From IMG/VR virus record IMGVR_UViG_2547132270_000002: 6,341 nt of DNA. One strand, 5' to 3'. Below, piece by piece: positions 1,228 to 3,876 of the stretch. This DNA is from a virus. Lineage: Duplodnaviria > Heunggongvirae > Uroviricota > Caudoviricetes. The notes under the pieces were generated by a model. It was given only the letters and a program-made list of their open reading frames with translations, was not told the origin of the DNA and searched no databases. Every line of letters begins with the position of its first letter. The stretch's first letter is position 1. The position numbers and the translations under genes are program-made.

Positions 1228-1773
1228 ATGGAAGTCAACAAAAAGCAGCTGGCTGACATTTTCGGTGCGAGTATCCGTACCATTCAGAACTGGCAGGAAC
1301 AGGGAATGCCCGTTCTGCGAGGCGGTGGCAAGGGTAATGAGGTGCTTTATGACTCTGCCGCCGTTATAAAATGGTATGCCGAAAGGGATGCTGAAATTGA
1401 GAACGAAAAGCTGCGCCGGGAAGTTGAAGAACTGCGGCAGGCCAGTGAGGCAGATCTCCAGCCAGGGACTATTGAGTACGAACGCCATCGACTTACGCGT
1501 GCGCAGGCCGACGCACAGGAGCTGAAAAATGCCAGAGACTCCGCAGAAGTGGTGGAAACCGCATTCTGTACTTTCGTGCTGTCGCGGATCGCAGGTGAAA
1601 TTGCCAGTATTCTCGACGGGATCCCCCTGTCGGTGCAGCGGCGTTTTCCGGAACTGGAAAACCGACATGTTGATTTCCTGAAACGGGATATCATCAAAGC
1701 CATGAACAAAGCAGCCGCGCTGGATGAACTGATACCGGGGTTGCTGAGTGAATATATCGAACAGTCAGGTTAA
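1228..1773 (+). CDS. nu1: Terminase small subunit gpNu1 (181 aa)
   Basis: ATG at 1228, TAA at 1771-1773. The protein MEVNKKQLADIFGASIRTIQNWQEQGMPVLRGGGKGNEV... matches lambda gpNu1 as I recall it, including the N-terminal winged-HTH region and K35 (AAG at 1330-1332). Sits directly downstream of cosB. Confidence 0.97.
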   Translation: MEVNKKQLADIFGASIRTIQNWQEQGMPVLRGGGKGNEVLYDSAAVIKWYAERDAEIENEKLRREVEELRQASEADLQPGTIEYERHRLTRAQADAQELKNARDSAEVVETAFCTFVLSRIAGEIASILDGIPLSVQRRFPELENRHVDFLKRDIIKAMNKAAALDELIPGLLSEYIEQSG

Positions 1774-3673
1774 CAGGCTGCGGCATTTTGTCCGCGCCGG
1801 GCTTCGTGCCCTGTTCAGGCCGGAGCCACAGACCGCCGTTGAATGGGCGGACGCCAGTTACTATCTCCCGAAAGAATCCGCATACCAGGAAGGGCGCTGG
1901 GAAACACTGCCCTTTCAGCGGGCCATCATGAATGCGATGGGCAGTGACTATATCCGCGAGGTGAATGTGGTGAAGTCTGCCCGTGTCGGTTATTCCAAAA
2001 TGCTGCTGGGTGTTTATGCTTATTTCATAGAGCATAAGCAGCGCAACACCCTTATCTGGTTGCCGACGGATGGTGATGCCGAGAACTTTATGAAAACCCA
2101 CGTTGAGCCGACCATCCGCGATATTCCGTCGCTGCTGGCGCTGGCTCCGTGGTATGGCAAAAAGCACCGGGATAACACGCTCACCATGAAGCGTTTCACC
2201 AATGGGCGTGGCTTCTGGTGCCTGGGTGGTAAAGCGGCAAAAAACTACCGTGAAAAATCGGTGGATGTGGCGGGTTATGATGAACTTGCTGCCTTTGATG
2301 AGGATATTGAACAGGAAGGCTCTCCGACATTCCTGGGCGATAAGCGTATTGAAGGCTCTGTCTGGCCAAAGTCCATCCGTGGCTCCACGCCCAAAGTGAG
2401 AGGCTCCTGCCAGATTGAGCGTGCTGCCAGTGAATCCCCGCATTTTATGCGTTTTCATGTTGCCTGCCCGCACTGCGGGGAGGAGCAGTATCTTAAATTT
2501 GGCGACAAAGAGACGCCGTTTGGCCTCAAATGGACGCCGGATGACCCCTCCAGCGTGTTTTATCTCTGCGAGCATAATGCCTGCGTCATCCGCCAGCAGG
2601 AGCTGGACTTTACTGATGCCCGTTATATCTGCGAAAAGACCGGGATCTGGACCCGTGATGGCATTCTCTGGTTTTCGTCATCCGGTGAAGAGATTGAGCC
2701 ACCTGACAGTGTGACCTTTCACATCTGGACAGCGTACAGCCCGTTCACCACCTGGGTGCAGATTGTCAAAGACTGGATGAAAACGAAAGGGGATACGGGA
2801 AAACGTAAAACCTTCGTAAACACCACGCTCGGTGAGACGTGGGAGGCGAAAATTGGCGAACGTCCGGATGCTGAAGTGATGGCAGAGCGGAAAGAGCATT
2901 ATTCAGCGCCCGTTCCTGACCGTGTGGCTTACCTGACCGCCGGTATCGACTCCCAGCTGGACCGCTACGAAATGCGTGTATGGGGATGGGGGCCGGGTGA
3001 GGAAAGCTGGCTGATTGACCGGCAGATTATTATGGGTCGCCACGACGATGAACAGACGCTGCTGCGTGTGGATGAGGCCATCAATAAAACCTATACCCGC
3101 CGGAATGGTGCAGAAATGTCGGTATCCCGTATCTGCTGGGATATTGGTGGTATTGACCCGACAATTGTGTATGAACGCTCGAAAAAGCATGGGCTGTTCC
3201 GGGTGATCCCCATTAAAGGAGCATCCGTCTACGGAAAGCCGGTGGCCAGCATGCCACGTAAGCGAAACAAAAACGGGGTTTATCTTACCGAAATTGGTAC
3301 GGATACCGCGAAAGAGCAGATTTATAACCGCTTTACACTGATGCCGGAAGGGGATGAACCGCTTCCCGGTGCTGTTCACTTCCCGAATAACCCGGATATT
3401 TTTGATCTGACCGAAGCGCAGCAGCTGACTGCTGAAGAGCAGGTCGAAAAATGGGTGGATGGCAGGAAAAAAATACTGTGGGACAGCAAAAAGCGACGCA
3501 ATGAGGCACTCGACTGCTTCGTTTATGCGCTGGCGGCGCTGCGCATCAGTATTTCCCGCTGGCAACTGGATCTCAGTGCATTGCTGGCGAGCCTGCAGGA
3601 AGAGGATAGTGCAGCAACCAACAAGAAAACACTGGCAGATTACGCCAGAGCCTTATCCGGAGAGGATGAATGA
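1748..3673 (+). CDS. A: Terminase large subunit gpA (641 aa)
   Basis: GTG start at 1748 overlapping the nu1 3' end by 26 nt; TGA at 3671-3673. [20 protein letters not shown]... matches lambda gpA as I recall it. Residues Y46 (1883-1885), K84 (1997-1999), D178/E179 (2279-2284) and K497 in GASVYGKP (3236-3238) are present. Confidence 0.98.
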
Positions 3674-3876
3674 CGCGACAGGAAGAACTTGCCGCTGCCC
3701 GTGCGGCACTGCATGACCTGATGACAGGTAAACGGGTGGCAACAGTACAGAAAGACGGACGGCGAGTGGAGTTTACGACCACTTCCGTGTCTGACCTGAA
3801 AAAATATATTGCTGAGCTGGAAGTGCAGGCCGGCATGACACAGCGACGCAGGGGACCTGCAGGATTTTATGTATGA
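3670..3876 (+). CDS. W: Head-tail joining / head completion protein gpW (68 aa)
   Basis: ATG at 3670 overlaps the A stop in an ATGA arrangement; SD GGAGAGG upstream. [35 protein letters not shown]... matches lambda gpW as I recall it. Confidence 0.96.

Follow-up and report, generated by a model that had tools for sequence, protein, structure and literature searches.

Do the overlapping gene starts of a lambda-type packaging operon tie the output of one gene to that of the next, or do they have some other origin? The question is raised by a 6,341-nt stretch of viral DNA (Caudoviricetes; IMG/VR record IMGVR_UViG_2547132270_000002), hereafter the window, in which the genes nu1, A, W, B and C follow one another on the + strand and every gene overlaps its neighbour. 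A first-pass annotation had read this arrangement as the lambda architecture expected for stoichiometric coupling, in a module uninterrupted by frameshifts or insertions. We find the four overlapping junctions to be genuine and the same as in lambda nu1-A-W-B-C; the module is intact but ordinary for the lambda family, and this overlap architecture is already textbook knowledge. We therefore address in what follows what the junctions consist of, how they are kept among relatives and how they might be used by ribosomes.

An intact lambda-type packaging and portal module

The first gene of the module, nu1 (1228-1773, ATG to TAA), encodes a TerS of 181 aa that matches Pfam PF07471 Phage_Nu1 over 1-164/164 (E 9e-101), and is followed by A (1748-3673, GTG to TGA), encoding a TerL of 641 aa with PF05876 GpA_ATPase (E 4e-50) and PF20454 GpA_nuclease (E 2e-73) domains; by W (3670-3876, ATG to TGA), encoding the 68-aa head-tail adaptor gpW (PF02831, 1-66/66, E 9e-37); and by B (3873-5474, ATG to TAA), encoding a portal protein of 533 aa (PF05136 Phage_portal_2, E 2e-97). 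The fifth gene, C (5455-6341, GTG start), specifies an S49 prohead protease (PF01343 Peptidase_S49) whose 3' part lies beyond the window end. All five proteins were matched full-length in Pfam, and none of the five ORFs contains an internal stop. The start of the scaffold gene Nu3 is nested in frame within C (6169-6341), where the ATG visible at 6169 corresponds to lambda position 5132 (lambda annotation nu3 5132..5737, plus an offset of 1037), an equivalent position in both genomes.

Window positions 1176-6341 align with positions 139-5304 of phage lambda (NC_001416) with zero gaps and ~97.4% nucleotide identity, i.e. about 2.6% substitutions. The lambda counterparts (nu1 191-736, A 711-2636, W 2633-2839, B 2836-4437 and C 4418-5737) have the same gene order and strand, the same start codons (ATG, GTG, ATG, ATG and GTG) and stop codons, the same lengths for nu1, A, W and B (546, 1926, 207 and 1602 nt) and the same junction geometries (-26, -4, -4 and -20), and the sequence is identical at all four overlaps; the substitutions closest to the junctions are two that precede W (3647 and 3649) and one in B (3882). 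At the protein level, the two phages differ by 1 residue in Nu1, 8 in A, 2 in W, 7 in B and 7 in the 5' part of C. This gapless coding alignment, with its identical lengths and with neither indels nor changed start codons in the coding module, bears out the first-pass view of an uninterrupted lambda architecture.

Two further searches concerned features other than the five genes. The Rfam search of the window gave zero matches. Long antisense ORFs occur inside A and C, with no Pfam match among them and with one matching a PHROG of unknown function; we take this to be, in all likelihood, a family of antisense ORFs that is over-annotated, rather than a gene breaking up the module.

The module is preceded by a cos of the lambda type, with the 12-nt cohesive-end sequence GGGCGGCGACCT of cosN (1039-1050) placed directly upstream of the TerS gene; window position 1039 equals lambda position 1, and the motif is also present in relatives. 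The non-coding cosB/nu1 leader (1051-1227) is 98.9% identical to lambda and holds the sole indel with respect to this phage, a single G for lambda's GG between window positions 1175 and 1176 (lambda position 138), the single-G allele being the commonest in relatives, with 34 loci matching the window exactly in that stretch. On the left flank of cosN the window reads CCAGCGATCCGGCAGGCTACG, in contrast to CCGGTGATCCGACAGGTTACG in lambda, and the 1 kb preceding cos shows no relation to the right end of the lambda genome. Among complete E. coli genomes, the best match to the upstream 1.2 kb covers 89% of it at 96% identity, none reaching 99% or more along the entire stretch. The window spans cos and therefore represents a prophage or a circular form.

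Two kinds of gene junction

The coordinates given in the first-pass annotation proved correct for all four overlaps, although the range assigned to them (1748-3876) leaves out the B/C junction that its own text described. A and W share an ATGA stop-start (3670-3673, -4) that is invariant in the lambda clade. The W start is preceded at 4 nt by the Shine-Dalgarno (SD) sequence GGAGAGG (3659-3665; duplex ΔG -6.6 kcal/mol), located inside the last codons of A, and the stretch 3652-3669 shows zero polymorphism among 62 distinct clade sequences. The W frame is shut directly upstream by a TGA (3667-3669), and the Pfam gpW match covers residues 1-67 of 68. In relatives, gaps of +2 to +16 separate A from W in 6/13 reliably called clusters and, therefore, coupling is not obligatory there. 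W and B share a second ATGA (3873-3876, -4), this junction being -4 or -1 in 7/7 reliably called clusters; the ATG at 3873 is the first start codon of the B ORF, and a weak SD, AGGA (3861-3864; duplex ΔG -4.1 kcal/mol, 30th percentile), lies 8 nt upstream of it.

The overlap between nu1 and A is 26 nt long (1748-1773), the frame of A being +1 with respect to that of nu1, and is identical in lambda, phi80 and mEp237. It codes for the TerS C-terminus (..SEYIEQSG*) as well as for the TerL N-terminus (MNISNSQV), and the A start has 7 nt upstream a weak SD-like GGGG (1737-1740; duplex ΔG -5.7 kcal/mol, in the 16th percentile for the window). Because the A frame is shut by an in-frame TGA (1745-1747), the next in-frame start is codon 61 and TerL residues 18-57 are conserved in all homologues, the GTG at 1748 is the sole possible start of A. 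An overlap between the TerS and TerL genes is present in 32/32 TerL clusters, down to about 55% identity, and in 30/32 of them TerL begins within the codons for the conserved TerS C-terminal motif LPGLL-x-EY; GTG as the TerL start at this motif is found in the lambda clade only among the 32 clusters. The remaining junctions of the module are also tight in relatives, but vary in form.

B and C overlap by 20 nt (5455-5474), C being again in the +1 frame relative to the upstream gene, and the B stop TAA falls within the C codons CGT AAT, which specify R-N of a conserved RNL motif. As the first reading had it, the GTG of C stands behind a strong SD, GAGGAGGAG (5442-5450), placed 4 nt upstream, with a duplex ΔG to the 16S 3' end of -12.0 kcal/mol, a value as low as which is reached at only 0.2% of all window positions. 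The position of the C start is homologous in the lambda, phi80, P21 and Gifsy clades, its codon alternates between GTG and ATG (ATG in 1/62 clade sequences and in phi80/mEp237), and the portal and C genes overlap in 10/10 reliably called clusters. A terminator-like hairpin followed by a T-tract was observed inside C (5521-5552), 47 nt downstream of the B stop. This element has kept its synonymous sites frozen throughout the clades of lambda, phi80, P21 and Gifsy.

Lambda late genes are co-transcribed from the late promoter. The pattern scan of the window did not find any + strand promoter-like site, and on the same strand it returned several terminator-like sites within the module, of which that at 5521-5542 is the strongest. 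The four ribosome-binding sites are of ordinary accessibility in the RNA (unpaired probabilities from the 31st to the 85th percentile), with no sign of structure making downstream initiation hinge on upstream translation; this result speaks neither for nor against coupling by unfolding.

Compared with the coupled gene pairs studied by Huber et al. 2023 (PMC10666635), the four junctions fall on two sides. A/W and W/B are same-strand overlaps of the -4/-1 kind, share the ATGA that is the commonest prokaryotic configuration and, like those pairs, have an SD within some 15 nt of the end of the upstream gene. In contrast, nu1/A (-26) and B/C (-20) are outside the -4/-1 kind and unlike those pairs, with long overlaps of another frame class.

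Conservation of the junctions among relatives

Junctions were called in a homology-guided manner at 242 loci from IMG/VR relatives, grouped in 32 TerL clusters. A ranking of IMG/VR by similarity gave just relatives 96-99% identical, and the ranking used placed divergent TerLs first; junctions of distant clusters in which the N-terminus of the downstream protein was unaligned (query start above 5) were considered unreliable and set aside. For Vibrio HY01, the annotation shows gaps of +79 and +148; we discarded them as products of mis-called starts, homology reaching upstream of the starts as called.

The -26/-4/-4/-20 geometry is kept in 64/69 distinct lambda-clade relatives, and frameshifts or premature stops break the module in 5/69 distinct close relatives; since such broken copies occur, the uninterrupted architecture of the window is informative. 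The junction blocks hold 8 polymorphic sites versus 27.6 expected (block permutation P=0.012). In the two long overlaps taken by themselves, 3 sites are polymorphic where about 10 would be expected, a deficit that is not significant given the clustering of polymorphism (P=0.11). Overlaps as such are frequent: by our own count from the annotation, 10/19 lambda junctions from nu1 to J overlap, and 24% of E. coli same-strand gene pairs lie within -8..+6 (PMC10666635). Four overlaps in succession have, at lambda's own rate, a probability of about 0.05 by our own arithmetic, which is mildly unusual. In these sequence comparisons it is conservation, and not the rarity of overlaps, that identifies the junctions as real features. 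The overlap length is 2 mod 3 in all TerS/TerL overlaps and in 16/20 B/C overlaps, and overlaps of this class, as argued by Huber et al., cannot collapse to -4 or -1 (PMC10666635).

The same five genes are found in phi80 and mEp237 (N15-like), with about 79% nucleotide identity to the window and junctions of -26/-1/-4/-20. Their TerS/TerL junction has the GTG start and a 42-nt sequence identical to that of the window, and W/portal is again ATGA, but TerL/W is TAATG (-1) instead of ATGA (-4) and C starts at ATG instead of GTG. Phage 21 (genes 1-2-3-4-5) keeps the gene order, and all its junctions overlap (-29/-17/-4/-11). Modules of the phage 21 and Gifsy-1 types have ATGA or GTGA at W/portal and the portal stop embedded in the RNL motif of C; they differ from the window in their nucleotide sequence (about 66-68% identity), in the ATG start of TerL and in the overlap lengths. 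The Gifsy-1 reference has a +21 gap at TerS/TerL, whereas 18 cluster mates have -29.

Discussion

Our analysis makes it probable that, in the intact, lambda-collinear late-operon module of the window, the ATGA junctions reinitiate translation and the long overlaps are served mainly by de novo initiation. The region is best read as the promoter-distal beginning of the late (morphogenesis) operon in a temperate phage or prophage of the lambda clade, in the order cos, nu1, A, W, B and C with the nested Nu3, and its five genes would be carried on one long late mRNA crossing cos. The type of junction would be set by the frame relation of the neighbouring genes, which is -1 at A/W and W/B and +1 at nu1/A and B/C. 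At A/W and W/B, a ribosome ending on the TGA would already be on the next ATG, with an SD in the last codons of the upstream gene, and reinitiation without leaving the mRNA would tie the output of W and B to the flux through A and W; B, with its weak SD, would be especially dependent on the flux through W. Overlaps of -4 or -1 have been shown experimentally to give tight coupling of native E. coli gene pairs, and reinitiation is cut by 40-80% at +14 nt, with hardly any left at +38 nt (PMC10666635). This steep decay with distance fits A/W and W/B and does not obviously fit the -26 and -20 overlaps. We infer ribosome behaviour and expression ratios at all junctions, and coupling at the ATGA junctions by analogy with the E. 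coli pairs. Counting against this reading, Saito et al., by the account in PMC10666635, argued for a dominance of de novo initiation in the same overlap class.

At nu1/A and B/C, the +1 frame class would not be shortenable to -4 or -1 and the long overlap would persist, held in place since both frames encode functional termini, with TerS LPGLL-x-EY lying over TerL MN(I)S and the tail of the portal protein over the N-terminus of C. Ribosomes would there initiate for the most part de novo, using an internal ribosome-binding site kept unfolded by those translating the upstream gene. The site of A, GGGG plus GTG, would be weak and would yield less TerL than TerS, and that of C, GAGGAGGAG plus GTG, would be very strong; the exceptional strength of its own SD suggests independent initiation of C.

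It is somewhat unlikely, in our judgement, that the overlaps simply result from genome compaction and a mutational ratchet, in which a stop is lost and the gene extends to the next one, devoid of a regulatory role, each gene being initiated from its own SD and the overlaps persisting as both frames encode needed residues. Such an origin would agree with the SD-like motif found inside the upstream gene before every downstream start, with the unremarkable RNA accessibility, with the commonness of overlaps in lambda (about 10/19 late junctions) and E. coli, and with the frame-class argument of Huber et al., which explains the long overlaps without function (PMC10666635). It would also agree with the drift in junction form across relatives, where A/W is -4, -1, -17 or +2 to +16 and B/C is -20, -17, -14, -11, -8 or -4. 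However, W/portal stays at -4 or -1 in 7/7 reliable clusters despite heavy sequence divergence, the SD of B is weak (30th percentile) and -4/-1 overlaps do couple native E. coli gene pairs in experiments; the depleted polymorphism of the junction blocks (P=0.012) points in the same direction, although dual coding alone could explain it. That the overlaps, at least the long ones, arise from start mis-assignment, with A beginning at a downstream ATG and C elsewhere, is scarcely credible. C has indeed five in-frame upstream candidate starts (5323-5416) plus downstream ATGs, and public records disagree, B being called 6 nt later in PhiR70_1 and TerL and C far downstream in Vibrio HY01. Nonetheless, the A frame is closed by the TGA at 1745-1747 and codon 61 lies beyond the conserved residues 18-57, the W frame is closed at 3667-3669 with a gpW match over residues 1-67, the C start has the strongest SD of the window, a homologous position across clades and the GTG/ATG alternation, and the PhiR70_1 deviation is explained by a T3M variant creating a second ATG.

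We regard as very unlikely that the overlaps enforce a fixed stoichiometric (equimolar or set-ratio) output along the whole nu1-A-W-B-C chain. All four junctions overlap, TerS associates with TerL in a complex, and the portal vertex is the common site of action of W, B and C; on the other hand, A and W are not known to be partners in a complex. Moreover, gpNu1 and gpA associate 2:1 and not 1:1 (PMC9410871), SD strengths span -3.3 to -12.0 kcal/mol and A and C use GTG, making equal outputs unlikely, the -26 and -20 overlaps are outside the -8/-4/-1 range credited with efficient reinitiation (PMC10666635), and Nu3, arising from an internal C start at a different level, argues for ratios set by individual ribosome-binding sites. 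The stoichiometric coupling proposed in the first-pass annotation is thus retained in part: the ATGA junctions fit termination-reinitiation, but the -26 and -20 overlaps, the SD of C and the 2:1 association of gpNu1 and gpA do not suit a 1:1 output. The enforcement of protein stoichiometry by the overlaps is not demonstrated by the sequence, and overlap geometry by itself is no demonstration of stoichiometric coupling, an over-reading that is corrected here.

Rather unlikely, too, is a conserved nucleotide-level control at the junctions that would combine GTG tuning of TerS:TerL with the 5521-5552 element. The ATG to GTG switch of the lambda-clade TerL, made via a TerS Ser codon (AGT, where all other clusters have GAT or AAT), may serve as a tuner of the TerS:TerL ratio, and the hairpin might work in attenuation, in processing or stability, or as a linker for recombination. 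If true, the 5521-5552 element would set the packaging/portal genes apart from the protease/scaffold/capsid genes in expression or in exchange.

The value of these findings is chiefly that of quality control, given that ~7% of distinct close relatives have frameshifts or premature stops; judged from its sequence, an intact and lambda-collinear packaging/portal module agrees with a phage that is functional or was so until recently. The comparative by-products would be of modest use for start annotation in lambda-like phages, where public records mis-call. They comprise the universal dual-coded TerS/TerL start, the GTG peculiar to the lambda clade and the frozen hairpin in C, and also provide leads on how terminase subunit ratios may be set.

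Results

Gene coordinates in the window were taken from the ORF list and from direct reading of the sequence. Five genes, all on the plus strand and free of internal stops, follow one another as nu1 (small terminase, TerS; 1228-1773), A (large terminase, TerL; 1748-3673, starting at GTG), W (head-tail adaptor; 3670-3876), B (portal; 3873-5474) and C (S49 prohead protease; from 5455, starting at GTG and cut by the window end). Thus, nu1 and A overlap on this strand by 26 nt (1748-1773), A/W and W/B share ATGA stop-starts (3670-3673 and 3873-3876), and B/C overlap by 20 nt (5455-5474). 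The first-pass annotation had all four positions and sizes exactly right, as well as the GTG of C behind a strong Shine-Dalgarno (SD) sequence; its range ended at 3876, so that it covered three junctions and left outside the B/C junction described in its text.

A megablast search of the window matched 414 phage records, lambda doing so over 1009-6341 at 97.4% identity. Pairwise alignment to lambda NC_001416 placed window 1176-6341 on lambda 139-5304 without a gap (offset 1037); the sole indel of the aligned part is a single-base one in the cosB leader, which is non-coding. The annotated lambda genes nu1 (191-736), A (711-2636), W (2633-2839), B (2836-4437), C (4418-5737) and nu3 (5132-5737) map one-to-one onto those of the window, with equal lengths, starts and stops. 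The overlaps are identical base for base, the closest substitutions being at 3647 and 3649, 5' of the W start, and at 3882 in B; amino-acid differences from lambda amount to 1 in Nu1, 8 in A, 2 in W, 7 in B and 7 in the 5' part of C. All five proteins gave full-length Pfam matches (Phage_Nu1; GpA_ATPase plus GpA_nuclease; gpW; Phage_portal_2; Peptidase_S49). With neither a coding indel nor an altered start codon relative to the lambda Nu1-C region, the uninterrupted lambda architecture proposed for this module is confirmed. In addition, ATG 6169, in frame within C, is the counterpart of the lambda Nu3 start (5132), a nested scaffold gene and a further overlapping-gene feature that the earlier description did not mention.

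The window's TerL cluster comprises, among IMG/VR contigs, 69 distinct sequences with all four junctions present. The geometry was canonical in 64 of them; in the other 5, nu1, B or C was broken by a premature stop or a frameshift of 1 nt, which makes the intactness of the window module informative. Such lesions, in nu1, A, B or C, were seen in loci L010, L016, L019, L059 and L060 (also L071 and L084), whose TerL is 96-99% identical in amino acids to that of the window; these broken close relatives, either degraded prophages or products of misassembly, account for about 7% of the distinct contigs of the lambda clade.

The start of A is fixed by an in-frame TGA (1745-1747) directly before GTG 1748. 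No further in-frame start occurs before codon 61, and TerL residues 18-57 include positions invariant among homologues from E. coli, Salmonella, Vibrio and Pseudomonas phages; therefore, GTG 1748 is the only possible start. The W frame is shut by TGA 3667-3669 and Pfam gpW covers residues 1-67 of its 68 amino acids, while ATG 3873 is the earliest start within the B ORF. A B start 6 nt later, annotated in PhiR70_1, was rejected as due only to a T3M variant creating a second ATG. By ORF logic C is the least constrained gene, with five upstream in-frame candidates. GTG 5455 has the strongest SD of the window (GAGGAGGAG, 5442-5450; -12.0 kcal/mol with the 16S 3' end, a value as low in 0.2% of window positions) and, with the conserved RNL(P/S)HI motif only a few residues further on, occupies the homologous position in modules of the phi80, P21 and Gifsy types. 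GTG and ATG alternate at this start: one of the 62 clade sequences has ATG, as do phi80 and mEp237.

Annotated junction distances (negative for overlaps; TerS/TerL, TerL/W, W/portal, portal/C) are -26, -1, -4, -20 in phi80 and mEp237; -29, -17, -4, -11 in phage 21; +21, -17, -4, -11 in Gifsy-1; and -29, +15, -1, -4 in Pseudomonas phage OQ658367. The Gifsy-1 gap (L005, 2395-2417), found as a -29 overlap in 18 other members of its cluster, reflects an early end of its TerS. For Vibrio HY01 (L006, MT366580; 479-683 and 4222-4378), the annotated gaps of +79 and +148 were discarded as mis-called starts, since gpA and gpC homology runs upstream of the annotated ATGs. Its C most likely begins at an ATG that gives an 8-nt overlap with the portal stop, and the corrected TerL and C junctions overlap.

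A wider survey drew on about 235 loci from IMG/VR and compared 32 TerL clusters (90% amino-acid identity). Junctions were called by tblastn homology, taking whichever start codon lay closest to the aligned N-terminus; the method reproduced the curated coordinates of six reference phages, and only calls with an aligned N-terminus were counted as reliable. Among the reliably called clusters, TerS/TerL overlapped in all 32 (-29 in 23, -26 in 5, -38 in 3 and an uncertain -125 in one, from Vibrio), W/portal in all 7 (-4 in 4, -1 in 3), portal/C in all 10 (-4 to -20) and TerL/W in 7 of 13 (-17, -4, -1; the rest +2 to +16). Three loci (L081, L082, L083) combine a lambda-type TerL (96-97% amino-acid identity) with a TerS just 40-43% identical to any reference used, and their TerS/TerL overlap is -29, not -26; they are apparently chimeras in which the small terminase, with its cos specificity, was swapped and the rest of the module kept. 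Across 62 distinct intact lambda-clade sequences, the junction blocks, each made up of an SD region and its overlap, held 8 polymorphic sites against 27.6 expected (P=0.012, block permutation), the deficit in the two long overlaps alone being not significant (P=0.11).

Within C, a terminator-like hairpin, GAACCCGC-CTATGC-GCGGGTTT followed by the T-tract TCTTTTGT, lies on the plus strand at 5521-5552 (about lambda 4484-4515), 47 nt 3' of the B stop. The longest perfect-match run with phi80 (5494-5549) takes it in. When the codons of A, W, B and C from five clades were aligned, the longest fully invariant run was that of the hairpin (eight codons, 5524-5547, PAYARVFF); a run of 8 was reached by none of 5000 shuffles, and overall only 13.7% of the degenerate codons with an invariant amino acid are themselves invariant. 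These frozen synonymous sites point to a probable nucleotide-level constraint. Rfam gave no match anywhere in the window, the 5521-5552 hairpin included.

The window crosses cos (nick 1038|1039) and is therefore a prophage or circular-form sequence. Its cosN-left flank (1017-1050), CCAGCGATCCGGCAGGCTACG, differs from lambda CCGGTGATCCGACAGGTTACG at several positions; 8 relatives have a similar flank, still one base off (TCCGGCG vs TCCAGCG in the window). The cosB spacer (1157-1198) has GAGC, the majority allele in relatives, where lambda has GAGGC. Upstream of cos, positions 1-1038 are unrelated to lambda's right end. Here, an 81-aa hypothetical ORF (718-963), without a Pfam or PHROG match, is annotated just 5' of nu1 in the E. 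coli AVS0969 prophage, and ORF 220-585 weakly and partially matches an Rz-like spanin PHROG over 21 residues only. Among complete E. coli genomes, none carries the 1.2 kb at this end of the window at 99% identity or better along its entire length. A 209-aa minus-strand ORF within C (5641-6270) matches phrog_36662 (E 1e-109), a family without assigned function that most likely arose by over-annotation of antisense ORFs in lambda-like genomes and does not represent a real gene; the remaining long antisense ORFs, which lie in nu1 and A, had no family match.

Discussion

The overlapping nu1-C junctions are textbook lambda biology, already known. By our count from the annotation, about 10 of the 19 lambda junctions from nu1 to J overlap, and four successive overlaps are only mildly unusual (about 0.05 at lambda's own rate, by our arithmetic). 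Among E. coli same-strand pairs -4 is the commonest spacing, and 24% fall within -8 to +6 (PMC10666635). The abundant lambda proteins D, E and V are preceded by true spacers (+9, +55 and +7), in contrast to the chained genes of low-copy proteins.

In native E. coli pairs, -4 and -1 overlaps couple translation via termination-reinitiation, the upstream gene's last 15 nt being enough, and coupling loss reaches 40-80% at +14 nt and is near total at +38 nt (PMC10666635). A/W and W/B fit this mechanism, with an ATGA and an SD inside the upstream gene (GGAGAGG within A, -6.6 kcal/mol; a weak AGGA within W, -4.1 kcal/mol). In the nu1/A and B/C pairs the start codon of the second gene precedes the stop of the first by about 15-20 nt, and the simplest model would be de novo initiation at internal sites held open by upstream ribosomes. 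RNA accessibility is ordinary at all four ribosome-binding sites. The weak A site, GGGG (-5.7 kcal/mol) paired with GTG, would be consistent with less TerL than TerS; TerL and TerS associate 1:2 (PMC9410871). The corresponding site of C is very strong. It is from such features that we infer junction ribosome behaviour and expression levels. The first-pass annotation also read the chain as serving stoichiometric coupling throughout. As stated, this is unsupported because the ratios differ, A and W are not known to be partners, SD strengths range from -3.3 to -12 kcal/mol, and in 6 of the 13 reliable clusters A and W are separated by a short gap. The interpretation is thus supported in part: its architectural reading and the intactness of the module hold, and its functional claim is a hypothesis.

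What holds the long overlaps appears in the coding sequence itself. Overlap length is 2 mod 3 at all TerS/TerL and 16 of 20 B/C junctions, a frame class for which Huber et al. argue that trimming down to -4 or -1 is impossible, so that the overlaps stay long (PMC10666635). At B/C the portal stop TAA is contained in CGT AAT, two codons of the RNL motif of C. In 30 of 32 clusters the TerL start falls within the conserved TerS C-terminal motif LP(G/E)LL-(D/N/S)-E-Y-(L/I/V) (window 1730-1773); the TerS codons xAT GAA TAT become ATG AAT AT.. in the TerL frame, which yields a TerL N-terminus of M-N/S/T-I/T-S. ATG opens TerL in 31 clusters and GTG only in the lambda cluster, because TerS has Ser (AGT) there instead of the Asp/Asn (GAT/AAT) of the others; the GTG start of A is thus a clade-specific consequence of dual coding. 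The gpNu1 C-terminus and the gpA N-terminus are the parts that bind one another, so that the overlap keeps two co-adapted interaction domains genetically inseparable.
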